Source: Methanobacteriota archaeon
GTDB taxonomy: Archaea; Thermoplasmatota; Poseidoniia; Poseidoniales; Poseidoniaceae
DNA: 37,226 nt
Direction of reading: 5' to 3'
Assembly: GCA_002689345.1 (NCBI GenBank)
Contig: NZFU01000053.1
Coordinates: forward strand, 3,169 to 40,394
In this document: positions 4,361-29,588 of the stretch, in pieces
Position numbering within the stretch: the first letter of the stretch is position 1
Layout of the letters: each line of letters begins with the position of its first letter
Notes under the pieces: model-generated
Databases searched by the model: none
Told to the model about the DNA's origin: nothing
Seen by the model: only the letters and a program-made list of their open reading frames with translations
Made by a program: the position numbers and the translations under genes

Positions 4361-4366
4361 CTTGAA
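4361..4366 (-). promoter_or_regulatory. TATA-like box TTCAAG at -30..-25 of the S8 protease start
   Basis: Same motif and spacing recur upstream of many genes in the window. Confidence 0.6.
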
Positions 4367-4379
4367 GACAAGCCTAAGA

Positions 4380-4396
4380 TGAGCCCTATGGGCTCA
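4380..4396 (-). repeat. Palindrome TGAGCCCATAGGGCTCA beginning at the gap stop codon (copy 1)
   Basis: 7-bp perfect inverted arms; near-identical copy at 17127-17144. Confidence 0.75.
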
Positions 4397-5428
4397 CTCA
4401 AATAGTGATGCAATTGCTGCATCGGTCTTGGCAACAGATGCCTTCCAATCGGTCTCAGTACCCATCAATGCCCTGATAGCGTCAATGTTCTCAGGAATCA
4501 CATCAGATTCTTGGTGGATCGCTTGGAAATAATACAAATTGTTACCAACTAATTTAACTCCATCTTCCCACACAAATATCTCATGTAAATCGCCCCATGT
4601 ACGACCCATGTCTCTTGCGAATTCCATCACTTCAGCAGTGGTTGTAATTCCAGTTTCCGCACCGTTCATTATGACGACACGTGGGCTATTTGACCACATC
4701 TCCAGTACACTTTCAGTTGTCAAACCATGACCTTCTGGTAGTGTAGCTACAATCGAATGAACATGCATAATTGTCGTAGGAACGGCAACTGCCAATGAAT
4801 TGATTTTTATTTCAGGTTTGACAGTCATTACGTCCGGACCATGATGGCTTGGAACTTTCAAAACAGGTTTAATCGCATTGATTGGACCTTTCTTAGAATC
4901 TCCTGGATCTGCGGCTCTTCGTATCATGGTACATTCAACAGATAATTCTCCACAATGCTCAAACAGTGGAACAAGCGTTCGAGAAAGACCTGTAGTGTTA
5001 CATGATACTACTCGTGTTCCTTCTGCGTTTAGATTACTTGTGTGATTTGCGCAAGAGGTGTATGAAAGACCGGTCATGGCATGTTTCTCGCCACCTTGGA
5101 ATATCCATTTCACACCTGCAGACTGGTATTTTGCCTTATTGTCAGCACCCATTTTACCTGGAGAACAGTCGACAACAACATCTGCAGCAGCCAAAAGATC
5201 GGTTAAACCGCCATGACATTCGTATCCAGCGGCTGCAAATGCTGCAATCCTATCTGCATCATCAAAAGTACAATACAAAGGGTATCCCTTTCTAACAGCC
5301 AAATCACAACCAAACGCTGGCCTGGTCTTTGTAACACCAATAATTTCCATATCATCTTGACATGCAACAGCGTCTGCTACTCGCTTGCCGATTGTTCCGT
5401 ACCCATTGATTGCAACCTTGATGGTCAT
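4394..5428 (-). CDS. gap: Glyceraldehyde-3-phosphate dehydrogenase, archaeal type II
   Basis: INGYGTIGKRVADAV, FQGGEK, catalytic VVSCNTTGL, PSHHGPDV, QAIHQESDVIPENIDAIRA. Confidence 0.97.
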   Translation of the reverse strand: MTIKVAINGYGTIGKRVADAVACQDDMEIIGVTKTRPAFGCDLAVRKGYPLYCTFDDADRIAAFAAAGYECHGGLTDLLAAADVVVDCSPGKMGADNKAKYQSAGVKWIFQGGEKHAMTGLSYTSCANHTSNLNAEGTRVVSCNTTGLSRTLVPLFEHCGELSVECTMIRRAADPGDSKKGPINAIKPVLKVPSHHGPDVMTVKPEIKINSLAVAVPTTIMHVHSIVATLPEGHGLTTESVLEMWSNSPRVVIMNGAETGITTTAEVMEFARDMGRTWGDLHEIFVWEDGVKLVGNNLYYFQAIHQESDVIPENIDAIRALMGTETDWKASVAKTDAAIASLFE

Positions 5429-5539
5429 GAGGCTCCCTATGTGGTGTGGCTTCGCGGGCCTCTCATGAACCTTGCTTCGCGTACCTAAACCCGTCTAGTA
5501 AGCAAACTGTTGATGAAAGAGAACGCTACCGCAGGGGTA

Positions 5540-7051: not shown

Positions 7052-7055
7052 TAAT

Positions 7056-9649: not shown

Positions 9650-9653
9650 CCTA

Positions 9654-11627: not shown

Positions 11628-11648
11628 CGTTTCTTGGGGATTTCTTTA

Positions 11649-11658
11649 GGTATATACC
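11649..11658 (-). promoter_or_regulatory. TATA box within perfect palindrome GGTATATACC upstream of the fasciclin gene
   Basis: TATATA lies at -29..-24 from ATG 11627, preceded on the coding strand by A-rich AAACAAAATG (BRE-like). Confidence 0.6.
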
Positions 11659-11741
11659 ATTTTGTTTTGTAACATAATTTTCAAACGTAGCATTGAACAA
11701 TTATTCCGCTCCATTGAAAGGCAAAGCCCCTTGCAGAAATT

Positions 11742-14114
11742 ATGCGCCGTATTTTGTTGGTACTAATCATTGCGATGATTATGCCACAAATGCCGGTTAG
11801 TGCAAGCGAAGATTCGTTTGACTTTTTTATCGATGATGAAGTGGTAATCCACCCAGGGGAAACTGTGCCTTTTCGTATCGCTTGGCACAACATTGTAGGG
11901 TTTGAGAGACATTTCCAAATAAATGTAAATCAATCACATTCCAACTTAACTATCGATGAAATCCCTGTAAATTGGACCAGGGTTGCATCGGGAAGATTAG
12001 GTGAGATGAACATCAATTTAACCGTCGCCTCTAACTCAAATTTTGAGACAATCCAATTCTCTCTTGATATTACTTGTCAAGAAGTACCAGAATGGAAGGA
12101 AACACATGAAATCGATGTCTTGGTATCCAGATGGTCGAGTCTAAACTTTGGTGCTAATGATGGGTCATCATTCTATGTCCAACAAAATGTGAATACAAGT
12201 CTAGCAGTAAATATTTCAAACTCAGCCGGCTATGAAGACTCGGTTACAATTCGTATGAACACGCCATCAAATTGGCAGTATGGATTTGTTGATGATATGA
12301 ACAATGACAATGAAGTTCTCATAGATTTATTAGATGGAGATGATGTTTTTGTTTACTTCTGGATTATCACTCCTAAAGTGCAAGATGGAGCACCACTTGC
12401 TGGCACTGGTCCAACATTTACACTAGAAGCTGTATCAGGCCTAGATAGAAGAGTCGAAAGTTGGACATTCGGCCTTGAAATGCAAACATTTCACAATATG
12501 AGTATTGATGATGTTGATGAAAACCTAAGTCTTGACCCCGGCGATACAGGAAGAATTGAAGTTACGGTAAGAAACAATGGTAATATCGACACCTTCCTTG
12601 ATGCATCATTGCGTATAGGTTCACTGAATGATGACCGAATCGAAGTTGATGGATGGACAATTGCATTATTCAACGCATTTGAATCTCAATCTCTAGCTCC
12701 AAATGAATCTCGATTAATTGAAATCGGATTTGAATCACCAAATGTGAATGATGACGAAATCGAAGTTGAACTGATAATCAAACCCGAGGCTTTTCCTCAG
12801 CGTGTCAATTCAATCACTATGTCTTCATCAATAAATTGGGAAAGGGGTGGTGTTATCTCATCGGCATCTAATCCATGTTACTCAGTACTATGGAATCAAA
12901 CCTGTCAACAGATGATTCAGATAGAGAATACTGGGAATTTCTATGAAGAATATTCGCTGCAAATTGTTGATGAAAATGGTATGAGTTTCGAGATTACATC
13001 TGAAATTATTGGTTTATCAAAAGACCAATTAAGTTCAGAAATTCCATTGAATCTGACACCACTCGTTGGGGCTGAGGGATTACTACCTGCCTCTGCAAAT
13101 TTAGAATTGCGACGCTCTGACGGTACACTAGTTGACTCGATTGCAATTTCATCATCCACTGCACCTAATGTTAATTGGATTTGTGAAAACGCATCAGATT
13201 CAGTCAATAATGGCAAACTCGAAGTATCGATTACAATGCGAAATGATGGTAATACTGCAGATGGTTTAGTAGTAAGAATGACATCTTCATACTATACAGA
13301 TATGAGTTTCATCCCCCCCGATAATGCGATTGTTGAAGATGGTTCATCTAACATCAGATCTTTCGAAGTAATCAATAATGAGAAAGGAGAAAATTTCACA
13401 TTTAGGGCTTGGGCTAAAATTCCGAATGACCAAGGTTCAGATGATGACTTTTACCTCAACATAACAGCCCATAGTAGACTTGCTGAAGAAAATCCATTTT
13501 TGTTTTCGGCCAACTCCTCCTTCGATGCTGCTATTTCTGTTGAGGATGACGAAAGTTCTGTAGTGAATTCGATCACTGATTTGATTTCATCATTCTTCTC
13601 GATCATATGGGCCTGGAAATGGATTCTTGTTGCAGCTTTGGTTAGTGGATTAATGATTAACAAATCCTTGCGGGATAGGCAATTAAGACTAGATGAAGCA
13701 GCTCTGAATAATCCGGTAAAAAAAGATGATGAGCAACCAGATGATTGGATGGCTGAATTTGCTAACAAGAAGCAGGCAGTTCCTGAACCTGCTCAATCAC
13801 CTGAAATACCATCTGAAGTATTCACTGGGATGTTCCAAGCCGTTGGTGGCGAAAGAAAACCTACTGCTGAACCTGTAGATTCACAACTTGTTGGTGCGGC
13901 AAATACTGTGCTTGACCACCATGATACACAAAATGTCAAGTCAAAAATGAATGTACTAGCAAGTGATATTGCTGGCGGAGACATCAGTAGGCCACATAGT
14001 GCAAATGTAGCATTACCAGATGACATAGTACCAGTCACAGAAAGAACTGTTCCCGTGGTTAAGGAGAAAACTGCAATCCCAGAGATGTTGGATTTGGATG
14101 ACCTTGATTTGTGA
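11742..14114 (+). CDS. Secreted multi-Ig-like-domain protein with single TM and acidic cytoplasmic tail
   Basis: Signal peptide; repeated NxGN motifs (RNNGNIDT, ENTGNF, RNDGNTAD); TM IIWAWKWILVAALVSGLMI; ~145-aa tail. Confidence 0.8.
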   Translation: MRRILLVLIIAMIMPQMPVSASEDSFDFFIDDEVVIHPGETVPFRIAWHNIVGFERHFQINVNQSHSNLTIDEIPVNWTRVASGRLGEMNINLTVASNSNFETIQFSLDITCQEVPEWKETHEIDVLVSRWSSLNFGANDGSSFYVQQNVNTSLAVNISNSAGYEDSVTIRMNTPSNWQYGFVDDMNNDNEVLIDLLDGDDVFVYFWIITPKVQDGAPLAGTGPTFTLEAVSGLDRRVESWTFGLEMQTFHNMSIDDVDENLSLDPGDTGRIEVTVRNNGNIDTFLDASLRIGSLNDDRIEVDGWTIALFNAFESQSLAPNESRLIEIGFESPNVNDDEIEVELIIKPEAFPQRVNSITMSSSINWERGGVISSASNPCYSVLWNQTCQQMIQIENTGNFYEEYSLQIVDENGMSFEITSEIIGLSKDQLSSEIPLNLTPLVGAEGLLPASANLELRRSDGTLVDSIAISSSTAPNVNWICENASDSVNNGKLEVSITMRNDGNTADGLVVRMTSSYYTDMSFIPPDNAIVEDGSSNIRSFEVINNEKGENFTFRAWAKIPNDQGSDDDFYLNITAHSRLAEENPFLFSANSSFDAAISVEDDESSVVNSITDLISSFFSIIWAWKWILVAALVSGLMINKSLRDRQLRLDEAALNNPVKKDDEQPDDWMAEFANKKQAVPEPAQSPEIPSEVFTGMFQAVGGERKPTAEPVDSQLVGAANTVLDHHDTQNVKSKMNVLASDIAGGDISRPHSANVALPDDIVPVTERTVPVVKEKTAIPEMLDLDDLDL

Positions 14115-14122
14115 GTGGTAAT

Positions 14123-14758
14123 ATGAAAATCGGCGTAGATGAGGCAGGTAGAGGTCCAGTTATTGGCCCATTAGTTGTCTGTGCTTTCGCATCCATATCT
14201 CAATCAAGTTTGAGAGAACTTGGAGTCAAGGATTCAAAAGACCTCAGTCCAAAAAAGAGAGAAGAGTTATTTGAAATCTTATCGGAAATGCCTCATCGAG
14301 TAGTGGTTTGCCCCCCTGAGAGAATTGATAATTCGGATAATCTGAATCACCTCGAAGTTGAATTGTTTGCAGAAGCTCTTGCGGCTATGCCTGATGGCCA
14401 AATCATGTTGGATGCCTGTGATGTAGATGCCCAAAGATTTGCCCGGAATGTTTCAGCATTATCCAAAAGAGAATGTATGGCTGAGCACAAAGCAGATGAA
14501 AACCACCCTGAAGTTAGTGCTGCAAGTATTATTGCCAAAGTTACAAGAGATCGAATCGTTCGAGAATTATCTGAGGAAATCGGTATCGATTTAGGTAGCG
14601 GCTATCCTTCAGATCCAAAAACAAAGAAGGCTGTTATTGAACTGGTTAAGGGTGAAAGACCACATGACTGTTTACGTTGGTCTTGGAAAACTGTAGAAAA
14701 TGCATGGGGCGGTACTCCTCCACCACGCCCAAATGCACGCCAACAAACCTTGTTTTGA
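14123..14758 (+). CDS. rnhB: Ribonuclease HII
   Basis: IGVDEAGRGPVIGP, VKDSK, HKAD, SAASIIAKVTRD, GSGYPSDP; C-terminal PIP-like RQQTLF. Alternative GTG start at 14111. Confidence 0.96.
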   Translation: MKIGVDEAGRGPVIGPLVVCAFASISQSSLRELGVKDSKDLSPKKREELFEILSEMPHRVVVCPPERIDNSDNLNHLEVELFAEALAAMPDGQIMLDACDVDAQRFARNVSALSKRECMAEHKADENHPEVSAASIIAKVTRDRIVRELSEEIGIDLGSGYPSDPKTKKAVIELVKGERPHDCLRWSWKTVENAWGGTPPPRPNARQQTLF

Positions 14759-14783
14759 AGAACTAAAGGCCCCACGCCCAATT

Positions 14784-16454
14784 ATGGAGTGGGAGCCGGA
14801 CCAATCGATATTGGACCTAATTCGTCATCTTGCACTGCAAAACAGTTTGCAATATGCCGGGAAAGGTCAAGCCGGCTCAGTGATTAGTCGAATCATGGGT
14901 AATCGTGCTGATTTAAGGCAACATGGTAAGCACATTGCGCCAATGGTTGCAAAAGCGGTTAACGATGCAAATGCGATGGCTGAATCAGATGGCTTAGATG
15001 CAATTAATGCAATTTTAGAGGCAGAGGCACCTGAACTATTGGAGAGGAAAGTTCAGACTCGACGTGAAGGTTTACCGGAATTGCCAAATTTGAATGATAG
15101 AAAACCTGTACTTCGCTTTGCTCCAAACCCAAATGGTCCACTATCGTTTGGCCATTCACGAGGATTAGTAATCAATGGCCAATATGCTAAGGATTTGAAT
15201 GGTGAGTTAATTCTGCGTTTTGATGATACGGATACAACCGTTAAACCACCTATGATGGAGGCTTACCAATCCATACCCATTCAACAGGAGTGGTTGTGTG
15301 GTTTTCCGGCTCATCGCATAGTTGTAGCAAGTGAAAGGATGGAGCATTATCACGATCATGCAAAACAAATGCTAGAAGGTGGATTTGGATATGTTTGTAC
15401 CTGTTCAGCCGAAGATTTCCGAGAACATAGAGTGGCTAAGACTGAATGTCCTTGCCGTAATAATGAAATTTCTACAAACTTAGAAGGATGGCAGCAAATG
15501 AATGACCCTGATGGCTATCAGCCTGGTGATGCAGTACTACGTGTAAAAACAGATATGACTCTCAAAAACCCAGCCCTAAGGGACTGGCCTGCTGCTAGAA
15601 TTCAAACCAACCCACACCCTAGAGTTGGAAATAGATGGCGGGTTTGGCCATTACTTGATTTCCAATCTGCTGTTGAAGATCACTTACAAGGTGTGACTCA
15701 CATTATTCGTGGAAAGGATTTAATGGACTCCACTCGAAAGCAAACATTGCTCTACAAACACTTTGGATGGGAATATCCTGAAACAATTTACTGGGGACGA
15801 GTTAAAGTTCATGAATTCGGAGCATTTTCAACATCACAAATGAAAAAGGACATTGCTGAAGGACTTTACAGTGATTGGAATGACCCCCGATTGCCAACTC
15901 TTTCGGCCCTTTCAAGAAGAGGTATCCAGCCAGAATCGCTACGCTCATTTTGGATAGAGTTAGGGCTAACTCAGAAAGACATTGCAGTACCACTGTCCAC
16001 ACTGTATTCGCACAATACAAAGAAAATTGACCCAAGGGCACCGAGATTGGCATTCGTTCGAAACGCATTCCCTATTGTTCTGAATGGAAATTTCCCTAGA
16101 ACTGGAGAAATCCAATCTCACTCTGATACAGAAATGGCACCAAGAAATTACTCAATTGATGAAGGTGTTTGGATTGAGCAGGATGATTCAGGTAAGCCTA
16201 TTCGTTTGAAAGATCTATGTGATATTGATGAAAATGGAAATGTCGAGAGTATTGACAGAAGTGACAAACGTAGTGTTGTGCATTGGGTTGCGAAAGGAAA
16301 GCCATCTAAACTCACTATAGCATCTGGTCAAGACCTGAAAACAGTCGAAGGGATTTTGGAAGACCACACACATCCAGTTGGAACGATTGTCCAATTAGAA
16401 AGAATTGGATATGCCATCGTTGAAGATGATGGATTACTTATGGTCCACGACTGA
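14784..16454 (+). CDS. gltX: Glutamyl-tRNA synthetase (archaeal type)
   Basis: RFAPNPNGPLSFGH, LRFDDTD, YVCTC..CPCR, THIIRGKDL, FSTS, DPRLPTL, QLERIGY. Start moved to ATG 14784 to avoid the rnhB overlap. Confidence 0.95.
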   Translation: MEWEPDQSILDLIRHLALQNSLQYAGKGQAGSVISRIMGNRADLRQHGKHIAPMVAKAVNDANAMAESDGLDAINAILEAEAPELLERKVQTRREGLPELPNLNDRKPVLRFAPNPNGPLSFGHSRGLVINGQYAKDLNGELILRFDDTDTTVKPPMMEAYQSIPIQQEWLCGFPAHRIVVASERMEHYHDHAKQMLEGGFGYVCTCSAEDFREHRVAKTECPCRNNEISTNLEGWQQMNDPDGYQPGDAVLRVKTDMTLKNPALRDWPAARIQTNPHPRVGNRWRVWPLLDFQSAVEDHLQGVTHIIRGKDLMDSTRKQTLLYKHFGWEYPETIYWGRVKVHEFGAFSTSQMKKDIAEGLYSDWNDPRLPTLSALSRRGIQPESLRSFWIELGLTQKDIAVPLSTLYSHNTKKIDPRAPRLAFVRNAFPIVLNGNFPRTGEIQSHSDTEMAPRNYSIDEGVWIEQDDSGKPIRLKDLCDIDENGNVESIDRSDKRSVVHWVAKGKPSKLTIASGQDLKTVEGILEDHTHPVGTIVQLERIGYAIVEDDGLLMVHD

Positions 16455-16704
16455 GGAATACCGGTTCACCATCATCTGTCATAATGACAAACTTAGGGCG
16501 CCATTTTTGGTTCATTTGTGGAGTTGGGTCAACCAATATATCCAACTCACAGGCATTCCCGCAATTTCCTTTACGCTCAAGATGCTGCTCGGTCAAAACA
16601 CCAAGTATGGTTTCAGAACCCCAAACGACTAACGCATCGACTGATTTTAGCCTCGATTTAGCTTCCTCAAGCGAATCTTCAGCACCGATTGTAGAGAATT
16701 CCAT
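16438..16704 (-). CDS. Small protein with degenerate CBS-like domain
   Basis: TIGAEDSLEEA..L....ALVV....ILGVLTEQHL resembles the CBS pattern; GAGGTG SD before ATG 16704. Confidence 0.6.
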   Translation of the reverse strand: MEFSTIGAEDSLEEAKSRLKSVDALVVWGSETILGVLTEQHLERKGNCGNACELDILVDPTPQMNQKWRPKFVIMTDDGEPVFLSRGP

Positions 16705-16778
16705 ACACCTCACTACTTGGGAAGGTCCATCAATTATACCATAGGTGGATTCAAGACTGTTGGCGTGTACGAGGTGTC

Positions 16779-17129
16779 ATGGCAATCGAGCGTCTACTGA
16801 CTGGCAGCATCGGAACTCAGGTGAAAGAACTGATGGCAACAGAAGATATTATGATCGAAGCTGTTCGTGATTTAGTAAAGGATGAAATCAAAGCATACAT
16901 CCGTGCAAAGGTCGAAGCAGACCAAGAATTAAAGGATGAATTAAAAGAGTCAATCACCTATTATTTCAATGCAAAAGCACGTTCTGTTTACGCTGAATTA
17001 AAGGCTAGTAGAGCCGCTGCAAAATTAGGTCTGCGAATTCTACCAGACGACCTTCAAGGTGAAGTTGGAGAAGCTTTGGTAGGATTATTCGAAAAGGAAC
17101 TCGGCAATCTTCTAGAGAAGGCACTTTGA
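16779..17129 (+). CDS. Hypothetical alpha-helical protein (116 aa)
   Basis: Clean ORF, GAGGTG SD, charged amphipathic composition. Confidence 0.8.
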   Translation: MAIERLLTGSIGTQVKELMATEDIMIEAVRDLVKDEIKAYIRAKVEADQELKDELKESITYYFNAKARSVYAELKASRAAAKLGLRILPDDLQGEVGEALVGLFEKELGNLLEKAL

Positions 17130-17144
17130 GCCCCATAGGGCTCA
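17127..17144 (+). repeat. Palindrome TGAGCCCCATAGGGCTCA beginning at a stop codon (copy 2)
   Basis: Differs from copy 1 (4396-4380) by one inserted C; both are followed closely by TTAGGC. Confidence 0.75.
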
Positions 17145-17201
17145 TTAGGCCACAGTTTTGAATAGGGTAATGCTTGCAGAGTCGTTTAGGTGAATCCACC
17201 T

Positions 17202-19232
17202 ATGCGCACAATTCGTCCACTTTTATTGTGTGTTATCCTACTATTTTCCTGCACACCTGCCTATGAAGCTCAGGCTGAGACTGTAGAGATTTGTTGTGAT
17301 TCCGGGCCTGTGGAATTGCATTTGCTTGGCCCAGCGAGTTCAGGTACCATGTCACCATTTGATGCCGAATTAAATGCTGAATCTGAAGAGGTCACAATTT
17401 CTGATGCTATTGCACAGCAACAAGAGATTGCGGTTTGGAAAATTAATCCTGCGTGGTCAGGAACTTATCCATCATCCACCTGGGAGTTTTCAATCGAATA
17501 TGAAGTAGCAAATGCAGGTGGTGCACAAATCAATGCATCGGTATCTGTGGAGATCAGTGGAGAAACTTTCATTGGAACAACCGACCAATCTAATTCATTC
17601 TTACCTGCGGGAAGTGGAAAATTAAGTATTGATATCAATGTTGAAGCTGGCTCAATTCCTTCATCAACCGAAATCAGTGTCACACTTCTAGCACAGACAG
17701 TTGTGTTTAGCGTACCTGGAACAGATGCTGGATTGACATTTAATTGGGGAGGAGTTGATGATGACTCGACAATTATGGCAGATATTCCTATTGTCGACCT
17801 ATTGATTGATGAACCAACATCGGAAGGAATGGATGTCTATGTCTCCATGGTTGTCGCTTCACCATTTGGACAAATGACAGCAGCGCATGCTAATAGTCTT
17901 GAATTACGAGTCAACAATGGTGTAGTCACAGGAGACCCTATCGAAACGAGCAGTGGACAATTTGTACGCCTAACTTGGACATGGAGAGCAGTTGTCGAGG
18001 GTGAGCAAAATATCACTGTTGAAGGAAGCATACAAGTTCAGTCAGGCACCCCTACACTTTCAGGTAGCACTGAATTTACAATCAGTACATTTGATGATGG
18101 CAATGATGGAGGCGGGACATTTTATCCCACAGAAGAACCGCTGAGAACGGATGGAGGGGGGTCTCCATTAATTGTCAATATGGAACTGAATCTCAACAAT
18201 ACAATGCAAGATGGTGACCAATATCTCACGCTTGAACGGACAATCGAATTGACTGTCGACGAGGAAATAGCCTATTGGATGAGATGGGGAATGGACAACA
18301 TTGGTAATGAAGACCCTAGCCTAACCACATCTCTAAGAATTTTTAATTCAGGAATGGTTAGTGAAGATGACAGAAGAAACAGAGTAATCGACGATGTCGA
18401 AAAGAGTGAATTCGAAAACCAAATGGTTAACTTAGCTGTAACCTACATGAACGAAGGAATGGCTTTAGAATTAGAAGAGCTAATCGGTAATGATGTTATG
18501 AATTTGGAAAAAATCTCATTCTCAGTTGATTTATTAGGCGAGGATAAAGTAACACCTCACCCTCTAACTTTGACCATTAAAACTGAAGAAATCTTAGGCG
18601 GTAATAACCTAACTACTTTGGTTAGAAATTTCGTAATTGTCCAGCCGTCTCCGATTTGGTCAGGTATTGATTTGAAAATAATGATCGAAACCGGAATCAT
18701 GGCTAGTCTAACTGGTGCCTCGATTGGAGGAGATGATTCTTTGGAATTCACACATAGAAGAACTCCATTTGGTGAATCGATTGAAATCAATGCCCAAAAT
18801 CTAGAGCCTGGAGCTACATTCTCATTCACTGCAATGCCCACCAATAATCCACTAAACGCTCCATTGAGTTTGACATTAATCACACTGGGCATTTTGGCAG
18901 GAGGATTCTGGTTCGCTATGCGTCTTACTAAGAAAAAGAGGCGAAGTGCTCTGTGGATTGAAATGGTTTTGATTCCTGTAGTCTTACTTACATTGTACTT
19001 AGCATACCCTCCTTTTACTGTAGGAGTAATTGCTGCAACTGCGGTAACTATGTGGATTATTACCGCTATTGCAAGCCCACGAAGAAAGGGCCTAGCCGTT
19101 GATAAAATTGAAACTACATTCCCGATTATTGAATGTCCTGCATGCAGCACACCTAATCCAATCACTACTGATGAGCGTCCTTTCCGAATGCCATGTAGTG
19201 GATGTGGCCGAGTGTTGAAAATTGTCGAGTGA
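17202..19232 (+). CDS. Secreted-ectodomain membrane protein with three C-terminal TMs and zinc-ribbon tail
   Basis: Signal peptide after AGGTGA SD; three hydrophobic helices near the C-terminus; CPAC...CSGC at the end. Confidence 0.82.
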   Translation: MRTIRPLLLCVILLFSCTPAYEAQAETVEICCDSGPVELHLLGPASSGTMSPFDAELNAESEEVTISDAIAQQQEIAVWKINPAWSGTYPSSTWEFSIEYEVANAGGAQINASVSVEISGETFIGTTDQSNSFLPAGSGKLSIDINVEAGSIPSSTEISVTLLAQTVVFSVPGTDAGLTFNWGGVDDDSTIMADIPIVDLLIDEPTSEGMDVYVSMVVASPFGQMTAAHANSLELRVNNGVVTGDPIETSSGQFVRLTWTWRAVVEGEQNITVEGSIQVQSGTPTLSGSTEFTISTFDDGNDGGGTFYPTEEPLRTDGGGSPLIVNMELNLNNTMQDGDQYLTLERTIELTVDEEIAYWMRWGMDNIGNEDPSLTTSLRIFNSGMVSEDDRRNRVIDDVEKSEFENQMVNLAVTYMNEGMALELEELIGNDVMNLEKISFSVDLLGEDKVTPHPLTLTIKTEEILGGNNLTTLVRNFVIVQPSPIWSGIDLKIMIETGIMASLTGASIGGDDSLEFTHRRTPFGESIEINAQNLEPGATFSFTAMPTNNPLNAPLSLTLITLGILAGGFWFAMRLTKKKRRSALWIEMVLIPVVLLTLYLAYPPFTVGVIAATAVTMWIITAIASPRRKGLAVDKIETTFPIIECPACSTPNPITTDERPFRMPCSGCGRVLKIVE

Positions 19233-20126
19233 TTACAAATGGCCACTAACTATTAGTGAGTCTGCAATGCTACTAGCGTGAACTCTAGCATCGTCAATAT
19301 CATCTGGCCAATCATTTCCAGCAAGGTGTAACTGACTGGCAATATCAACTTCATTACCTGGAATCATAACCCTATGCCAAATTAATTCTTCGAGCCTCAT
19401 GGTAGAAATTCCGTCCAATCTTAAAGTTGGTAATACAAGTTCACTAATTGCTGAACTTCTTTCATCGACATCCATTGTAGGCCATCCTTTAGCTAGCCTC
19501 TTGAGCATTCTCTGTGATAATCCAGGAACTATGTCTACCACAGGAGATGGCACCTCAGGTAGTGGACAGATGTCGATTGAACCCTCTGCATCCAAATGGT
19601 CTCGAAGTAGGGACATTACTGGGTCGTAGTTCGCATCAATACCTTGACGCAGCCAACAGCCGGAAATTGTCATGGAACGTTGTTTCCTTACCCTTGAACC
19701 TTCAGGTGCAAGCATCGATGAAATTGCTGCACATAATGCAACACATTCAACCGCTCCATGATGATCATTTTTTGATGACTCCAATTTGATTAGTACAGAT
19801 AGTGGTGAAATATGAATATAATTTTCAGTTATCTCCAAAGTAGATTTAGAATCCTGAAAAGGGTCGATATGAATGATTAACCCGTCAACCTCAGGTAATT
19901 CATGAACATGGTCTCGCCCAGTATGCTTTCTAGGAGGTAAGACTCTGCGACGATAGTGTAGAGCATTATCCAAAAAAGCGGCTTCTAGTTGCGCAAGAGC
20001 AAGAACACCTTCGATATCGGCAGGCGCCATTAACTGAACCAATTTAGCCGATGAAATCTTGTCGACAATATCCGCTAACTGCTCTTCGATTGAAGAAAAA
20101 ATCGGCGATTGTAGCAGATTGTTCAA
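19233..20126 (-). CDS. Degenerate DHH/RecJ-like protein (N-terminal domain only)
   Basis: ADIEGVLALAQL resembles DHH motif I (DxDG); lies directly downstream of rps15, the usual archaeal position of a RecJ-like gene; TTG start with AAGGTGA SD. Confidence 0.6.
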   Translation of the reverse strand: MNNLLQSPIFSSIEEQLADIVDKISSAKLVQLMAPADIEGVLALAQLEAAFLDNALHYRRRVLPPRKHTGRDHVHELPEVDGLIIHIDPFQDSKSTLEITENYIHISPLSVLIKLESSKNDHHGAVECVALCAAISSMLAPEGSRVRKQRSMTISGCWLRQGIDANYDPVMSLLRDHLDAEGSIDICPLPEVPSPVVDIVPGLSQRMLKRLAKGWPTMDVDERSSAISELVLPTLRLDGISTMRLEELIWHRVMIPGNEVDIASQLHLAGNDWPDDIDDARVHASSIADSLIVSGHL

Positions 20127-20181
20127 CGACTCACCTTACCTAGACACCTGGTAGGTAGTTCATCAAGTTGAGTGTGTAGTA

Positions 20182-20643
20182 TCACTCAACCATCAAGCGA
20201 AGTTGGTCACGCTTGTACTTCCAATCAGAAGCTAGGCGACCTTCGCCGATGTAATACTTAGCAAGGCGACGAATCTTAGCCTCAGTAAGTTCAAGAGAAC
20301 GCTTGTTGTGAATGTCTTTGTGGTTTCCAGAACCAATGTGCTCGATGATTCCAACAGCCTTGCGCATTAGATTCATCATATCTTCAGGATATGTTCCACC
20401 AATGTCATTCTCAGATAGAACAGCAGAGATTCTCTTACCGTCCAATACTGCGCGTACATCAGGAACTGCGTGCTGATCACGAAGAATTGTTCCAATTGAT
20501 GCTGATGAATGTCCTGTCTTTCCTAGTTCAACAATGAGTGCGGTTACCGCTGCTGCATCAGTGTTTGACCACTCTGGTGCAGATTCATTGTGTGGCTTTG
20601 TGGAACCGGACTTACCTTTCCTCTTAGCGTACATACGTGCCAT
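20182..20643 (-). CDS. rps15: 30S ribosomal protein S15 (uS15, archaeal/S13e type)
   Basis: MARMYAKRKGKSGS, IGTILRDQH, PEDMMNL, KDIHNKRSL.LTEAKIRRLAKYY; GGAGG SD. Confidence 0.97.
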   Translation of the reverse strand: MARMYAKRKGKSGSTKPHNESAPEWSNTDAAAVTALIVELGKTGHSSASIGTILRDQHAVPDVRAVLDGKRISAVLSENDIGGTYPEDMMNLMRKAVGIIEHIGSGNHKDIHNKRSLELTEAKIRRLAKYYIGEGRLASDWKYKRDQLRLMVE

Positions 20644-20715
20644 AATGGATGCCTCCGAGCATTCCGCCGACCTATCACCCATTCTTAACCGCTACGCATA
20701 GACAAAATCTGAGTT

Positions 20716-22449
20716 TCACAGTCTTTGATGCATTTTTGCGAGGCGTCCAGGAGTTCCCGACCATTCCCAAGCAGGTGCTGCCGCCCTAGCAGAACCGAGG
20801 CACTGAGAGCCTTGCATCACCAGAATATCTTCTCCAGCCTTTATCGATTCATCATAGGATTCGAGGATTGCAAGATTAACATCCCCTTTCCACTTCAGAT
20901 TTTCTTTCAGGCTTATCCGCTTGAGCGAGCCTAGTGAATCCAACATCTCGACACAGGCTTTAGAAATTGAAAATCCACCTCTTTCTGGAGCCCACATTGC
21001 AATTTGTTCATTATCTTTCAATATCTTCCAGCGAGGAAATCTACCTCGGACTTGAACCCCATCTAACCATGAATCATTCAAATGGTGAAATCTTGCAACC
21101 GAGCGGAAATTATCGATATTGATTTTTTCACCACTACGTCGTTTTACTTGCATATTGTCAAGAACACTTTGCTCGAGTCTTTGGAGAGCTTCATGATTGG
21201 TAGATGAAGCGCCCTTTCTTGTATCGATAACTGGGATGTCGCATTGATATTCCATACCTGAGTGATTAATAATTACCCTGTAGGTATTTTTTGCAACCAA
21301 AGAATCGATCATTTTTGTGACTCTATCGATTTCATCCCTAGTCCAATCTCCAGTTACGGGAATATCATAATGCCCTGCAGGCCAAACTTCTTCTAAATCT
21401 CTAGGAACAAGCCCTAGAGGTGAAGTTACAATTACTTCATGTGCGGCATTATGATTCATAGCCCTACGAAACGCCTTATGACTTCTTGAGGAAGAATATG
21501 GTTTACGCGCAGAACATGGAAGAAGTATGAGAACCTCATCTAATCCTTCGGGAGCCTTGTATTCATTAGAAATGAAATCAACCCAATCAAGAATAACTGG
21601 ATCGTCATGCGATTCCACGCTATGAATACGGAGCGCCGTGCCTTTACTCACGATTTGTGATAATATTCCATCCGAGCCTGAAATTAATTTGTCATGATTT
21701 CTCAAATGTTCCACAAGTCTTGGGCTATTCAGGGATTGAGATTGAGCCAACTCACGTAATGAATTGCTGGACATTGCAGAACGCACCTCTGCTAGAGCGG
21801 TTTTCCAATGGTCAACACCTGGCTCATTTTCCATTAGCATCCTTGGTCCATTCCAAGTCAGTACTGCACCATGTGATTCCGCTTGCTTAGAACGTGTTGT
21901 ATCAAACAAATCTATGCCAAACCAAGAAAGTACTGCACAATTATCTGGGCCACCTATACCTGGAGCCCACAGTAATGAACCAGGAAAACGACGTTTGATT
22001 ACATGTATTGCTTCTACTAGCCTACCTGGTTTGTTTGCAAGTTGAAGAGCATCTGTAAGCACTACAACATGAGGATTCAAATCTTGGTCTAATAATCCTT
22101 CATCATGATTGAGAGATTGCCAAGAAATGGGTAGTAAGTCGCCCTTTGAGGCCACTTCACCAGCATCTGCTTCATCCAAAGAAGGAGGAAGCACATGGCC
22201 TATTGAAGCAGTAAGAACTGGGCCATTCTCCTCAGACTCCCAAGGTGCAAAAGGTGCTCGAGAATTTAGTGTAATAGTCCTAGGTATTGCTCCGTCACTG
22301 GATGTCGAGAATGGAGCCCAAACAACATCCATCTCATCATCAGTAATTACCAATCCCGGGGCAAAGGAGGAAGGTGCAGACCTATCTCCTAAACTCCACA
22401 ATCTAGCAAGTCGATGACGCGCCAAGACTGTGCGACCTAAGCCTCCCAT
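20716..22449 (-). CDS. arcS: Archaeosine synthase subunit (ArcS/TgtA2 family) with C-terminal PUA-like domain
   Basis: TGT-like GIDLFDT; LLPCSARKPYSSSRSH; HEVIVTSPLGLVPRDLE..PAGHYDIPVTGDW; PUA-like C-terminus. Confidence 0.85.
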   Translation of the reverse strand: MGGLGRTVLARHRLARLWSLGDRSAPSSFAPGLVITDDEMDVVWAPFSTSSDGAIPRTITLNSRAPFAPWESEENGPVLTASIGHVLPPSLDEADAGEVASKGDLLPISWQSLNHDEGLLDQDLNPHVVVLTDALQLANKPGRLVEAIHVIKRRFPGSLLWAPGIGGPDNCAVLSWFGIDLFDTTRSKQAESHGAVLTWNGPRMLMENEPGVDHWKTALAEVRSAMSSNSLRELAQSQSLNSPRLVEHLRNHDKLISGSDGILSQIVSKGTALRIHSVESHDDPVILDWVDFISNEYKAPEGLDEVLILLPCSARKPYSSSRSHKAFRRAMNHNAAHEVIVTSPLGLVPRDLEEVWPAGHYDIPVTGDWTRDEIDRVTKMIDSLVAKNTYRVIINHSGMEYQCDIPVIDTRKGASSTNHEALQRLEQSVLDNMQVKRRSGEKINIDNFRSVARFHHLNDSWLDGVQVRGRFPRWKILKDNEQIAMWAPERGGFSISKACVEMLDSLGSLKRISLKENLKWKGDVNLAILESYDESIKAGEDILVMQGSQCLGSARAAAPAWEWSGTPGRLAKMHQRL

Positions 22450-22514
22450 GAATAGAGGCGGGAAGTACGCTGGTCTTGAATGATTTGAAGGCTGATGAGT
22501 TCACCGCACCAAGT

Positions 22515-24560
22515 ATGGGAAGGCCGATAGTATGCCTCATCACTGTCTTGATGGTCTTGCCATTAGCCTCTGCTAGTTACTCTAACACCCAGATGACTGA
22601 AGAAGGGACTGCTTGGTTTGATTGTGATGGTTCATGGGCATCTATCCATGATTCTGAGGGGATTGAATTGGTAAATGATAGTGATTTCACGATATCGCTT
22701 GATTCTGAAAACCATACAATTTATGTTGACGATATGACAAAATGTCAGGGAGTCATTCCTCTTACTGAAGAATTACCAAACTCAAGACCTATACCTGGTG
22801 AAGAGTTTTTCACGATAGGTTCCGATGTATGTCCCCAAGATGGTTACTACATGGGATGTGAAGGAGAATATACCTCTGGAGATTTGATCGATGACCCTCA
22901 GGATATATTTGCAATCAATGTTAGTGAAAATCACATGCTAGTATTGACACTGGTTGCATCATCATCTAGTATTGATGTTGAACTACATTTCCAAACAGAG
23001 AGCGAGGAACAGGCCTTGATTCAAAATTTCTCTATGGCACTGAATACCTCAATTGGTGAAAAATATGTCCAATACGTACCAATTGAAGATGATGGAAGAG
23101 TGATTGTCACAGTATCTAGCCCCCAACCAGATACAATTTGGTCGATGAGAAGTAAAATATTTGCCACTTCTGAAATTCAACCATTAACGCATCTAGATAA
23201 TATTGTGGGGGTAGGCCCTACGCCATTTGCATACGTACTTGGCCCGCATGAATCGTTAACCATTACAAAATCAATGACAAGTGATGGAACTTCTGAAGTT
23301 CCAATCAAATACCGTTATGTCTATTCTGAAAACTCGAAATCGGAATGGAATGTCATTCCTGCACCTCTCAATAGTAGAATCAATGTTATTGAGGACATAC
23401 AATTTATCGAATTCCAATGGGATTGTGAATGTGAATGGATAGCTTCAATGTCTCGTTACCGCCACTTTGATGCAGGGTGGGGAAGAGACGCACCAGGACT
23501 TAAACCAATGATGCCAACAAGTGATAATTCATCATATCCACTAATCGAAATGGATAGCCATTCCGAAGATGGTGAATTGACTCTGCATATGGGGGATTTC
23601 CAAGATGTTCTTCGTGTAGAAACTACCGGTTGGAACGAATCAACACATTTGGTTAATGTCATTGTTGAAGGGGACATATATGACCTGCAAGTGACAATTT
23701 GGAATATGGACCAAGAGACTTGGGAAATATTAGGTGAGGTCACTACAACTTATTCTATGGATAGAATCACAGCCTCACTAAATGTTGGATTGGGCACACA
23801 TTATATCAAAATCGAGCACATTAATGGCAGTGATTCTTTACTTGAAAATAATTCAGAATCTGTCAAATGGAATATTAGAATCACAACCGCAGTACTAGAT
23901 GAAGGAGATCAACCATGGTTCCCAGCATCTGATGCCGTCAAAGATGCTGCTGACTTATTCTATTGGTTGATTGGGTTAATCCTAATTTTACCATTCATAA
24001 TATTCTACATAAATGTGAAGAAGGAACAAAGATTTGCAGAAGAATTCTCTAGTCGTAAAAATCGTTTAGATTGGTTACGTTCAAAATTGGATGATGGTGA
24101 ATACTCATCTTATGATTTATCCAGAGCACTGAAAGCGGTTTCAACACTTGAATGGGAAGAAGCACTAGAGGTATGGGGCAAAGAAAGTATTCGTCACTAT
24201 ACCATGGGAATAGACATGGCTGTTTGGACATTGGATAAGCGACTTGGTGAAGATGGAACTTGGCCATTGTTAATCGGTTTGCGACCACTTGATTGTGAAT
24301 GGAGTGTCGCTGCATTGAGGTTTGAGGCGCCAGAAGGAGAAGCTTGGTCGGTATCCAAAACAGACCCGAAGATGCTTACAAGAGATGATGAAATTTTCTT
24401 AGACACAATAAATGACAATTCACGAGTATTCATCAGAATCGACCTTCAAGGAAATGCTGATGCATTAAACATCAATCTCTCCGGGATGGTAGATGGTGAA
24501 CCAATGGCTGCAAAACCAGCCAACACTATCTATCGTAGCGAAAGTAATTCCGAAGAATAA
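22515..24560 (+). CDS. Hypothetical single-pass membrane protein with acidic beta-rich (PPC-like) ectodomain and cytoplasmic domain
   Basis: Signal peptide from ATG 22515; GxL...DxQD motifs twice; TM LFYWLIGLILILPFIIFYI followed by KK. Confidence 0.75.
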   Translation: MGRPIVCLITVLMVLPLASASYSNTQMTEEGTAWFDCDGSWASIHDSEGIELVNDSDFTISLDSENHTIYVDDMTKCQGVIPLTEELPNSRPIPGEEFFTIGSDVCPQDGYYMGCEGEYTSGDLIDDPQDIFAINVSENHMLVLTLVASSSSIDVELHFQTESEEQALIQNFSMALNTSIGEKYVQYVPIEDDGRVIVTVSSPQPDTIWSMRSKIFATSEIQPLTHLDNIVGVGPTPFAYVLGPHESLTITKSMTSDGTSEVPIKYRYVYSENSKSEWNVIPAPLNSRINVIEDIQFIEFQWDCECEWIASMSRYRHFDAGWGRDAPGLKPMMPTSDNSSYPLIEMDSHSEDGELTLHMGDFQDVLRVETTGWNESTHLVNVIVEGDIYDLQVTIWNMDQETWEILGEVTTTYSMDRITASLNVGLGTHYIKIEHINGSDSLLENNSESVKWNIRITTAVLDEGDQPWFPASDAVKDAADLFYWLIGLILILPFIIFYINVKKEQRFAEEFSSRKNRLDWLRSKLDDGEYSSYDLSRALKAVSTLEWEEALEVWGKESIRHYTMGIDMAVWTLDKRLGEDGTWPLLIGLRPLDCEWSVAALRFEAPEGEAWSVSKTDPKMLTRDDEIFLDTINDNSRVFIRIDLQGNADALNINLSGMVDGEPMAAKPANTIYRSESNSEE

Positions 24561-25688: not shown

Positions 25689-25741
25689 ATTGACACCTCG
25701 AACAAAACATGGGGAGCGGTCGGGGTTATTCAGTACAACGC

Positions 25742-26665: not shown

Positions 26666-26706
26666 CTAAACATTCCTTCTGTATTTCACCAATGAAGGTT
26701 TGCGCA

Positions 26707-27681: not shown

Positions 27682-27756
27682 ATTGCGCTCTGTTTCGCTA
27701 AAGAATGTCAAGGTTGGCCTGTCAACTTCATTGACCATGGCCTTCTGGGGTGTAAT

Positions 27757-28263
27757 ATGGAGAGACTCAAACTTACAGGAATCGATGAAGGATTGTCTGT
27801 ATTAGTCTCAACTAAATTATCGGGAGCTGACCAGCCTGAACTTGTTCTTGATGCAGTATTGAGACTGTTTCCAGAATTTACTTGTGGCCTTCCAGATAAG
27901 CCAACATTCCCTTCGATGCAAGATGACATCTTAGCAGCAGAAGGAGTTAGTCTTGGTGAATTCCTAGATACGATTCACAAGCAGGCTATCCTCGATACCT
28001 CGCTTGATTTCATGTCAGCCAATTTAGATGACACTGGCACGATATTTCAGATTTCACGACAAGCTGCAATGGTAGGTAAAGTGGCATTCCCTCTGCCCGG
28101 AGATAACCCATTGGGAGGAGTTATCACAGTAGAAATCGGTGGTGAAAATCTTGAGGATTGGCTTGAAGCCGCTACTTGGCACAGAGGAAGAGAGGATATC
28201 CCTCGTCGTATAGGTGATGAATTCACTATGGATGATAAGGGTGAAGCGGTAACCTGGCACTAA
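27757..28263 (+). CDS. DUF54/COG1931-like archaeal putative RNA-binding protein
   Basis: V.dAV.rLFP, QAILDT, SRQAAMVGKV, PLGGVITV pattern recalled for this family. Confidence 0.65.
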   Translation: MERLKLTGIDEGLSVLVSTKLSGADQPELVLDAVLRLFPEFTCGLPDKPTFPSMQDDILAAEGVSLGEFLDTIHKQAILDTSLDFMSANLDDTGTIFQISRQAAMVGKVAFPLPGDNPLGGVITVEIGGENLEDWLEAATWHRGREDIPRRIGDEFTMDDKGEAVTWH

Positions 28264-29173
28264 TCGCTTCTGCAATCTCTTGGTCAGGCCCTAACCAACT
28301 AACTTCGTTTGGCCCATCACACCACTGGGTCTTGTCGTGAACATGCAGTTTCATTTCACCATCAACGATGTGGCATTCCAAAACATGAAGTCTTACAACT
28401 ACATCATCGTGATCAAAAATCCATGTACCAATTAATTCACCAGTTGTAACTTCTAATTCTAATTCCTCTTTTATCTCACGCACTAAACATGCTGCAGCAT
28501 CTTCTCCTGGCTCAAATTTACCACCTGGAAATTCCCACCATCCTGCATGTTTCTCATTTGGAGCTCTGCGGGCTGCTAGAAATTTTCCATTGTGAATAAT
28601 AGCGCCTGCGCCAACATCGATACAAGGTGGTCTAAGCATCCTATCTAGACATTGTAAAACCAATCCTTTAGCATCGCTTTGTTTTGGTGGAAGGTGAAGA
28701 AAGAAGCAAGGAGTGTTATCTTTAATTCTTGAAAGTGTGTGGTATAATGTTTCATTGCAAACAAATTCCCCAGCATCATTGCTAATTATTGGCGAATCTA
28801 CCATTCTCTCAATATCCCAATCTTCGGGCTTAATAGTTGAAAATAAGTCACCATTTCCACTGATTGTTTTATTGATAATTTTACGTCCTGAGTTATCCGG
28901 TATTCGGAAATCAAGTATATCCCTAGCCCTTATTTCAATACGAGGAGATGTGGAATTTTCTGCTAGCCCCAAATGAATGATTGCAGCAAACTTTCGTTCA
29001 GTAATTAATTTAGAAACTGTCGTAGCACCATCATTATTGACAGGTAATACAAGAGTTTCAATTACATTCCCTCGTACATTTTTACCAGATATTTCGCTAG
29101 CGACAATACCTGAAATATTGGTTTCATGCTTACCGAAAGCCTCGAAACCCGTGACAAGTACTGACGCCCCCAT
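28226..29173 (-). CDS. Pyroglutamyl-peptidase I (C15) fused to MutT-like NUDIX hydrolase
   Basis: VLVTGFEAFG..N, HLGLA, RIE, IPDNSG, SNDAGEFVCN, FLHLP; then WEFPGGKFEPGE...REIKEEL Nudix box. Confidence 0.9.
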   Translation of the reverse strand: MGASVLVTGFEAFGKHETNISGIVASEISGKNVRGNVIETLVLPVNNDGATTVSKLITERKFAAIIHLGLAENSTSPRIEIRARDILDFRIPDNSGRKIINKTISGNGDLFSTIKPEDWDIERMVDSPIISNDAGEFVCNETLYHTLSRIKDNTPCFFLHLPPKQSDAKGLVLQCLDRMLRPPCIDVGAGAIIHNGKFLAARRAPNEKHAGWWEFPGGKFEPGEDAAACLVREIKEELELEVTTGELIGTWIFDHDDVVVRLHVLECHIVDGEMKLHVHDKTQWCDGPNEVSWLGPDQEIAEAISARLPLHPYHP

Positions 29174-29249
29174 AACTATGGTTCAGAACTCCACTTTGAT
29201 GAGCATTTGCGTCGCCACATTGACAAGTATTCACTTGTACGACACACTG

Positions 29250-29588
29250 ATGCAAAGTGAAAGTTCTGACATCGTGGTCGTAGTGCCCACCGATGAAGAA
29301 GGGCCAGATTCACTTGCATTATCCAAGACTATTTGGCATGAAATAACTGCTGGAGTAGGCATTTGGGGTGCATTTAGACCAGTTATTGCAGTGGTTCTAT
29401 CTCTAGTTCCATTTCTATTCCTTGGGCAACATTTCAATCGAAATCATAGAAGAGCAACCGACTGGTTTCTTTTGCAAATCCCCTTAGCATTTACATTAGT
29501 ACTGTGGATATTGCTATACTTTTGGTCTATAATTGACGCTTGGAAAGATGCGAGTATAATTGTCTCACATTCTCAAGGCCAGATTTGA
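29250..29588 (+). CDS. Small hypothetical membrane protein
   Basis: Two to three hydrophobic segments ending WSIIDAW. True start is likely ATG 29250, since the upstream part of the track ORF is antisense to the pcp fusion. Confidence 0.7.
   Translation: MQSESSDIVVVVPTDEEGPDSLALSKTIWHEITAGVGIWGAFRPVIAVVLSLVPFLFLGQHFNRNHRRATDWFLLQIPLAFTLVLWILLYFWSIIDAWKDASIIVSHSQGQI

Follow-up and report, generated by a model that had tools for sequence, protein, structure and literature searches.

A TT[C/G]A[A/T] box as the probable main core-promoter element of the archaeal order Poseidoniales (Marine Group II)

The 37-kb stretch of DNA considered here (the window; G000:C3:3169-40394) belongs to a 1.68-Mb genome assembly, in 74 contigs, of an archaeon of the Poseidoniaceae (Poseidoniales, Marine Group II), with 42.8% G+C (57% A+T) and 77% complete. 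An earlier, sequence-only reading of the window had pointed to TTCA and TTGA hexamers about 30 nucleotides (nt) upstream of its start codons. The whole-genome and comparative analyses presented below indicate that these hexamers are instances of a TT[C/G]A[A/T] box (TTSAW, where S is C or G and W is A or T; T1 is the first T of the box), which is probably the main core-promoter box of Poseidoniales, in place of the archaeal TATA box. We document the position, sequence, enrichment, conservation and lineage distribution of this box and regard it as supported that the order as a whole has a new version of the archaeal core promoter. Full-text searches for TATA boxes in Poseidoniales or Marine Group II found no earlier description of the TTSAW box; the matches obtained were unrelated, as judged by title and abstract.

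A crude hexamer-based caller of open reading frames (ORFs) delineated 1302 genes in the source genome (91.6% coding), and upstream regions were aligned mechanically on the first ATG of each called ORF (1219 genes). The true start differs from the first ATG in an unknown fraction of genes, which dilutes the signal rather than creating it. The TT[CG]A motif started at positions -31, -30 and -29 in 51, 74 and 82 genes, respectively, amounting to 207 of 1219 genes on a background of 18.5 per position (about 55 expected). A blind positional scan of all k-mers returned TTCA (111 versus 27.5 expected, p=5e-33) and TTGA (96 versus 29.2, p=1.5e-22) at -31 to -29 as the strongest words outside the Shine-Dalgarno (SD) site, the latter appearing as GGAGGTG at -15 to -9, while TATA gave only a small peak at -27 to -25 (28 versus 7.7 expected). 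The genome-wide positional peak of TTSA near -30 that the sequence-only reading called for is therefore present. TT[CG]A also starts at -3 (TTC-ATG or TTG-ATG) in 94 of 1219 genes versus 18.5 expected, an excess that may partly represent TGATG stop-start overlaps or in-frame TTG codons.

The third position of the box is the one that sets it apart. Motif discovery by expectation-maximisation with zero or one occurrence per sequence (ZOOPS) over -60 to -12 converged on T-T-S-A-W from all seven seeds, including TTTAAA, TATATA and GCGC, and the central column contained C at 0.48, G at 0.52 and A/T at 0.00. Counts at -31 to -29 (n=1181) were 108 for TTCA (26.2 expected) and 92 for TTGA (28.0), versus 21 for TTTA (14.9) and 12 for TTAA (10.6). 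The excess thus comprises about 146 genes for TTSA versus about 8 for TTWA, and by excess counts C/G is 10–20 times commoner than A/T at position 3; an A/T-only 8-bp consensus of the TTTAWATA type does not describe these sites. When any candidate start within the first 30 codons was admitted, TTSAW was found in 184 of 670 leading genes versus a mean of 65.5 over eight control offsets, and TTWAW in 29 versus 17.2.

The box is conserved where the surrounding DNA is not. The archaeosine-transglycosylase-like gene of the window (start 22449, minus strand) has TTSAA at -29 to -31 in 15 of 15 orthologous promoters from six genera of the family, with C at position 3 in 12, G in three and A or T in none. 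The DNA flanking these 15 boxes diverges, with identity of only 65–75% even within the genus, and C/G swaps are seen inside two genera (L199 versus L203; L200 versus L195 and L201). For the wider comparison, TTSA was counted at the three peak positions within -31 to -28 using the same pipeline. The motif was enriched in a genome of the same genus (G016, 400 kb, 44 versus 17.7 expected), in family f3 (G029, 330 kb, 49.6% G+C, 35 versus 8.4) and in family f2 (G021, 400 kb, 36 versus 12.9). In contrast, no TTSA peak appeared in two families of the same class outside the order, f4 (G035, G031 and G041, 64% G+C, 4 versus 4.5) and f5 (G050, 62% G+C, 8 versus 7.2). These families showed TTTT, TTAA, TTTA, TATA and TTAT at -30 to -25 instead (in f4, TTTT 24 versus 2.2 and TTAA 17 versus 1.6 expected), and 52 pooled loci of non-Poseidoniales archaea yielded TTAT, TTTA and AATA. 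The recovery of canonical boxes in f4 and f5 serves as a positive control for the method and, with the missing TTSA peak, indicates a change specific to Poseidoniales: the TTSA box is found in all three families of the order and, among the genomes sampled, is confined to it. The 27 pooled Poseidoniales loci of the TATA-binding protein (TBP) gene mostly show a single orthologous promoter, which belongs to the TBP gene itself, and do not form an independent promoter sample.

Could such a peak arise from the choice of starts, codon periodicity, stop codons (TGA in TTGA) or base composition? The background does carry period-3 ripples, and TTSA is 1.5 times commoner than base composition predicts. 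Moreover, several starts picked in the sequence-only reading fit the motif; those at 5540, 14784, 16704, 22515, 27681 and 29250 were placed downstream of the longest ORF, which is partly circular. The genome-wide and transfer RNA (tRNA) tests are independent of those choices, so the circularity does not touch them: starts were fixed mechanically at the first ATG. TTCA, a word free of stop codons, shows as strong an enrichment as TTGA; the motif is also present at divergent pairs (69 of 315 divergent genes without an SD-like word) and at tRNA genes; and the pipeline returned canonical TATA, not TTSA, in f4, f5 and the 52 pooled loci. These controls rule out such an artefact, for which we see practically no room.

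The distribution of the box among genes is promoter-like. The motif occurs in 158 of 748 genes without an SD-like word versus 42 of 433 genes with one. Genes were counted as operon-leading if they were divergent or separated by at least 40 nt from their upstream neighbour; of these, 122 of the 540 without any SD-like word had the motif (23%), versus 25.1 expected (p=1e-43). The suggestion that the box precedes most start codons was too strong, as exact TTSA at -31 to -29 marks 17% of all genes and the above 23% of SD-less leading ones. The architecture matches that described for genomes with leaderless transcripts, with the box at -31 to -29 in SD-less leading genes and GGAGGTG at -15 to -9 in others. 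In the parts of PMC6028130 that deal with archaea having leaderless mRNAs, the promoter box lies about 26 nt from gene starts, as in 11 of 11 Thermoplasmata genomes, and group D of GeneMarkS-2 is described as having a box at a fixed 22–30 nt before first-in-operon genes and SD sites at the remaining genes. The sequence-only reading had also placed the motif at -40 to -44 before several SD-bearing genes; the four hexamers in the window are present at these offsets; genome-wide the signal is weak (16 versus 8.2 expected at -46 to -40 among 91 operon-leading genes with a strong SD, p=0.01).

Stable RNA genes carry the box as well. ARAGORN predicted 23 tRNA genes, and for the 17 with 60 nt of upstream sequence, TTSA started 27–34 nt before the mature 5' end in 10 (chance per gene 0.12, binomial p=5e-6). 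These promoters show the box at its most complete, as TTCAAGAAGGGG or TTGAAAGAA. In four of the seven remaining tRNA genes, this place is taken by boxes of the canonical kinds TTAAAT, ATATATAC or TTTATC, in the forms TTAAATAG, TTAAATGG, ATATATAC and TTTATC. For the 16S rRNA promoter, a degenerate pattern of the 16S 5' end was without a match in the 77%-complete assembly. Anchoring the alignment on the motif revealed a weak signal resembling the B recognition element (BRE), with A at -4 from T1 (0.47), a purine at -3 (0.72) and C/G at -7/-6. The A at -4 is the strongest flank signal, not only here but also before the canonical boxes found in f4 and f5 (0.55).

Canonical A/T boxes persist beside the TTSAW type. 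Upstream of the source genome's TBP gene lies CTTTAAATAGGGG, with the canonical TTTAAATA beginning at -30, and the TTTAWATA form at TBP genes is kept in most of the distinct upstream sequences listed across the order. Full A/T 8-mers are exemplified by TTTAAATA, TTTATATA and TTAAATAG, and box DNAs of the TTSAA type by TTCAAGAA, TTCAAGAAGG and TTGAAGAAGG; TTAAAGAAGG and TTTAAGAAGG are W variants, and CTTTAAATAGGGG is an example of canonical DNA. Canonical and TTSAA boxes begin at the same position, so the S takes the place of the third base in the canonical 8-mer. The proposal that the hexamers are a TATA variant with C or G at position 3, made in the sequence-only reading, is supported by this shared start at -30, by the BRE-like A at -4, by the occurrence at tRNA genes and by the presence of the box throughout the lineage. 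As a separate observation on the TBP gene, its upstream region has the canonical CTTTAWATAGGGG at -32/-30 in most of the loci listed, and in the source genus a further A/T box, GTTTATAATCGG, stands at about -18, downstream of the first and ahead of the start codon; it is a candidate site of TBP autoregulation.

The following course of events would account for these data. T1 would lie 29–31 nt upstream of the start codon in leaderless mRNAs and 27–34 nt upstream of the mature 5' end in tRNAs, preceded by the BRE-like signal of A at -4 and purines at -3. TBP would bind the box through the minor groove, transcription factor B (TFB) on the BRE would set the direction of transcription, and RNA polymerase would start about 30 nt downstream of T1, at or adjoining the ATG. 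SD-bearing genes would be mostly operon-internal or transcribed from boxes farther upstream. Seen from the minor groove, G:C and A:T pairs differ, whereas C:G and G:C look nearly alike; this would explain why C and G are about equally frequent and A or T almost never occurs at position 3. Minor-groove reading predicts near-equal C and G with A/T excluded, and A or T at position 5; position 5 of the box is indeed W (A 0.51, T 0.40), and its 3' half is weakly A/T-rich. This base pattern speaks for a reader of the TBP kind and against a helix-turn-helix regulator.

Alternatively, the box might not be a core promoter but some other signal locked in position, such as an operator bound by a global regulator, a signal of the 5' leader or for translation inside a leader of about 30 nt, or a word related to methylation or restriction. 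TTSAA is short and quasi-palindromic, as small operator half-sites are, and SD-like sequences also occur at some box-bearing genes. However, the element stands at one fixed distance before tRNA genes and hundreds of unrelated protein genes, it shares the register of canonical TATA boxes, those of this genome and those of the class's other families alike, and SD-bearing and operon-internal genes have it less often. The equal use of C and G with A/T excluded also marks minor-groove reading and not the major-groove reading of helix-turn-helix proteins. We consider a role other than that of a promoter very unlikely.

The genome encodes both TBP and TFB, as expected of an archaeon with TATA-type promoters. 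The single canonical TBP gene specifies a protein of 203 amino acids (aa) with two PF00352 repeats (172 bits), and of the two TFB genes one is canonical (82–87 bits per repeat) and one divergent (45–47 bits). The number of TFB paralogues was tried as an explanation of the box and rejected: sampled Poseidoniales have two TFB genes versus three TFBs, together with two TBPs, in other families of the class, with no lineage-specific pattern. The source TBP was aligned with 47 Poseidoniales, eight family f4 and 50 other archaeal TBPs (non-redundant). Changes specific to Poseidoniales at positions that are nearly invariant elsewhere would mostly face the protein core (V43, V47, L52, M56, A62, C169, I171 and I179), while three (S to R at 17, K to R at 61 and V to I at 159) map to the face that would contact DNA, judging from strand alternation; in the other archaeal TBPs compared, Lys at 61 and Val at 159 are found in 100%. 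The FPGLIYR pattern aligns position 159 with yeast I194. Additionally, all 47 Poseidoniales TBPs have an insertion of 20–70 aa between strand S1' and helix H1' of the second repeat, which is absent from the 58 others. In the source TBP it spans residues ~111–132 and has the conserved ends YALHYPEDY... and ...GEPxAxxPRKLNLNNL; the AlphaFold model has a mean pLDDT of 92, with 84–89 in the insertion. On the strength of the alignment, the insertion and the three substitutions are at most candidates for an altered specificity.

Several observations weigh against a TBP-read promoter box. The DNA contacts of TBP, which we take to be two Asn, four Phe, Val/Thr pairs, Arg and Leu as known from TBP-DNA structures, are all unchanged in the 47 Poseidoniales TBPs, and G:C inside the box is not the expected preference of a TBP with canonical contact residues. 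Conserved canonical A/T boxes coexist with the TTSAA type at the TBP gene across the order, at four of 17 tRNA genes and at the window gene starting at 11627, which could mean two readers and not one. The altered TBP specificity put forward in the sequence-only reading is thus not borne out, as the presumed contact residues are kept and canonical boxes persist, including that at the TBP gene. The exact motif is present at only about one fifth of genes, and TTSA occupies 1.56% of positions in coding DNA; being so common there, the box cannot act alone. The window genes starting at 16704 and 16779 have, as the earlier reading had cautioned, both a -30 box and an SD-like GAGGTG at -11. Finally, the terms leaderless and promoter are applied here from spacing, conservation and analogy: a search of sequencing runs with window positions 14001–24000 listed no RNA run containing this DNA, and the three runs that it did list, which come from the same study, share next to none of its sequence words.

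A second TBP-fold protein, named here TLP, is the obvious candidate for another reader. TLP (181 aa) is encoded outside the window and is a highly divergent two-repeat paralogue of TBP; weak additional PF00352 hits in related genomes drew attention to it. It matches the Pfam TBP family (PF00352) with 34.9 bits versus a cut-off of 22.9 and aligns with TBPs in hhalign with a probability of 97% over 171 columns; AlphaFold predicts a full two-repeat saddle (pLDDT 90.5), for which the top Foldseek hits are all TBPs (TM 0.73–0.83). At the sites that we take to hold the DNA-kinking Phe residues, the hhalign mapping shows the first deleted and Asp, Leu and Trp at the second, third and fourth, respectively; among the presumed central contacts, the second Asn is missing, and His and Leu replace the two Thr. 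A profile built from 20 orthologues found strong matches in 44 of 45 Poseidoniales genomes, with no match in G230 (92% complete). Outside the order scores did not exceed 37 bits, and the weak hits checked by coordinates (G035 and G031) are ordinary TBP genes. A single-sequence search detected TLP in 20 of 20 genomes within the order versus none of 20 outside, and a library of 1.84 billion representative proteins gave only 20 matches at E<=1e-30. In 17 of 17 loci from two families, the TLP gene is colinear with genes for a 265-aa protein (no Pfam family) upstream and a TatD-type DNase (PF01026, E=2e-22) downstream, which suggests a role in DNA processing or repair. According to PMC3597702, the TBP domains characterised outside TBP itself occur as single copies, so a bipartite protein without the Phe residues would be unusual.

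In a scheme with two readers, the canonical TBP would serve the minority TTTAWATA promoters, and TTSAA would be read by another lineage-specific factor, possibly TLP together with one TFB. In its favour, the promoters fall into two classes with no continuum, full A/T 8-mers versus TTSAA with a weakly constrained 3' half; the phyletic pattern of TLP is that of the box; TLP is confidently predicted as a full TBP saddle; and the canonical TBP retains its presumed contacts. Nevertheless, TLP is without the DNA-kinking Phe (three of four) and several central contacts, and its constant nuclease neighbour points to DNA processing or repair and not to transcription, which together make TLP less likely as the reader of the box. 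The co-occurrence of TLP and the box amounts to a single evolutionary event, and the non-Poseidoniales families of the class, which have extra TBP and TFB paralogues, still keep canonical boxes. We therefore hold the existence of a separate reader to be distinctly improbable.

A TTSAW core promoter read by TBP may also be taken further. The otherwise universal TBP-TATA recognition may have been rewired in Poseidoniales so that a G:C pair in position 3 is positively recognised from the minor-groove side, TTSAA being used at most promoters including those of tRNAs and the ancestral TTTAWATA being kept at a small conserved set, including the TBP gene with its two tandem A/T boxes. In the boldest form, two promoter classes would be served by the insertion-bearing TBP and the Phe-less TLP, as a counterpart of the eukaryotic division of labour between TBP and TRF. 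We offer this scenario as a speculation with a rather low chance of being correct.

All 16 hexamers listed in the sequence-only reading are present in the window at the offsets given there, 12 at -28 to -31 and four, before SD-bearing genes, at -40, -41, -42 and -44 (Table 1). The window carries archaeal housekeeping genes, namely those for archaeal-type glyceraldehyde-3-phosphate dehydrogenase (GAPDH), Glu-tRNA synthetase, PheT, ribosomal protein S15, the archaeosine transglycosylase-like protein, DnaJ and RNase HII, as well as genes for very large surface proteins. Back-to-back boxes occur in the divergent pairs 22449/22515, 16704/16779 and 27681/27757, with 65–76 nt between the start codons. 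Since the TTCAA/TTGAA duplex reads alike from either strand, it is the flanks that must give direction. Genome-wide, some genes combine a -30 TTSA box with an SD-like GAGGTG or GGGGTG at about -10, as do those starting at 16704, 16779 and 27757. An SD within a box-bearing leaderless gene would go untranscribed, which may mean dual transcripts or that the G-run is a promoter-proximal element.

Table 1. Boxes in the window and loci of the genes discussed; positions without prefix are window positions, and offsets are those of T1 from the start codon.
Feature	Position	Strand	Offset, gene or remark
TTCAA box	4362..4366	-	-30 from ATG 4336 (subtilisin-like surface protein)
TTGAT box	5510..5514	+	-30 from ATG 5540 (start of the sequence-only reading; longest ORF begins at TTG 5510)
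TTGAA box	11714..11718	+	-28 from ATG 11742
TTGAA box	14755..14759	+	-29 from ATG 14784 (Glu-tRNA synthetase); within the end of the RNase HII gene
TTGAT box	16729..16733	-	-29 from ATG 16704; GAGGTG at -11
TTCAA box	16750..16754	+	-29 from ATG 16779; GAGGTG at -11
TTCAA box	22476..22480	-	-31 from ATG 22449 (archaeosine tRNA-guanine transglycosylase-like); kept in 15/15 orthologous promoters
TTGAA box	22485..22489	+	-30 from ATG 22515 (divergent partner of 22449; box starts 9 bp apart)
TTCAT box	26692..26696	-	-31 from ATG 26665
TTGAC box	27707..27711	-	-30 from ATG 27681 (start of the sequence-only reading; longest ORF begins at 27738, with TTGA at -32)
TTCAT box	27727..27731	+	-30 from ATG 27757
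TTGAC box	29220..29224	+	-30 from ATG 29250 (112-aa ORF missed by the gene caller; plausible small membrane protein)
TTCAT, candidate box of a leadered transcript	5465..5469	-	-41 from ATG 5428 (GAPDH, SD-bearing)
TTGAA	17158..17162	+	-44 from ATG 17202 (SD-bearing)
TTGAT	20162..20166	-	-40 from TTG 20126 (SD-bearing)
TTCAA	36163..36167	-	-42 from ATG 36125 (SD-bearing, giant surface protein)
Canonical TATATA (in GGTATATACC)	11651..11656	-	-29 from ATG 11627; minority canonical class
TBP gene	L001:1483-2091 (G000:C10)		single canonical TBP
TBP gene upstream region	L001:1413-1482		same place in L003-L078
TFB gene	G000:C58:22251-22802		
TFB gene	G000:C46:47300-47788		
TLP gene	G000:C27:20073-20615 (L182:1477-2019)	+	outside the window
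TLP cluster	L182:683-2867 (G000:C27)		further 16 loci: L142, L184-L188, L258-L267

Few protein-DNA interactions common to archaea and eukaryotes are as conserved as the recognition of TATA by TBP, and the A/T preference of TBP has its structural explanation in the minor groove. An entire order preferring G:C inside the box would be a natural experiment on this rule. The archaea most abundant in the plankton of the surface ocean belong to Poseidoniales, of which we know none in culture. The rule that TTSAW at -30 denotes a leaderless start can correct the calling of start codons and operons in thousands of Marine Group II metagenome-assembled genomes, and the box supplies a promoter model for the reading of metatranscriptomes. 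As a host signature, it could also help to link marine viruses with Marine Group II hosts. A tblastn search of a phage collection with the DNA polymerase B of the source genome matched records of cyanophage, haloarchaeal virus and Salinibacter phage at about 25% identity, with no Marine Group II virus among the phage records listed; PCNA was not found in the source genome.

Comparison with known systems places the box closest to the archaeal TATA element. Two of the window hexamers read TTGACA, the -35 element of bacterial sigma-70 promoters, about 30 nt upstream of a start codon. This reading was rejected, since the DNA comes from an archaeon that encodes TBP and TFB, the consensus is TTSAW and C is as frequent as G; no -10 element follows the TTSA box in the genome-wide upstream alignment, and the resemblance is coincidental. 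The canonical archaeal BRE/TATA pair, which drives leaderless mRNAs (group D of GeneMarkS-2) from a TTTAWATA-type box centred at about -26/-27 that TBP binds and TFB orients, is alike in its position relative to start codons and tRNA 5' ends, in the A 4 nt upstream, in the SD-led internal genes alongside and in the encoded TBP and TFBs, and the spacing is identical in the non-Poseidoniales families. It differs in that Poseidoniales have C or G at position 3, only weak A/T content in the 3' half and the canonical form as a minority class.

The TTWW-type boxes of haloarchaea and the yeast "TATA-like" elements with one or two mismatches also depart from the textbook 8-mer while occupying the TATA position. 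In these relaxed versions A/T is still the best base, whereas Poseidoniales positively select G:C (S in 15 of 15 orthologues, W in none) in a genome with 57% A+T, and their strongest promoters, those of tRNAs, also use the TTSA box. Eukaryotic TBP-related factors (TRF2/TLF) serve non-TATA promoters and are a precedent for TBP paralogues taking over promoter classes, a role for which TLP is, from its sequence, a candidate only. The engineered yeast TBPm3 (I194F, V203T, L205V) reportedly recognises TGTAAA, and provides a precedent for a few changes in the C-terminal repeat admitting G:C in the 5' half of the box. The V to I change at 159 in Poseidoniales lies at the site of yeast I194; eukaryotic TBPs already have Ile there, yet they prefer A/T. 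The Poseidoniales case differs from TBPm3 in placing G:C at position 3 and not 2, and in being natural and lineage-wide.

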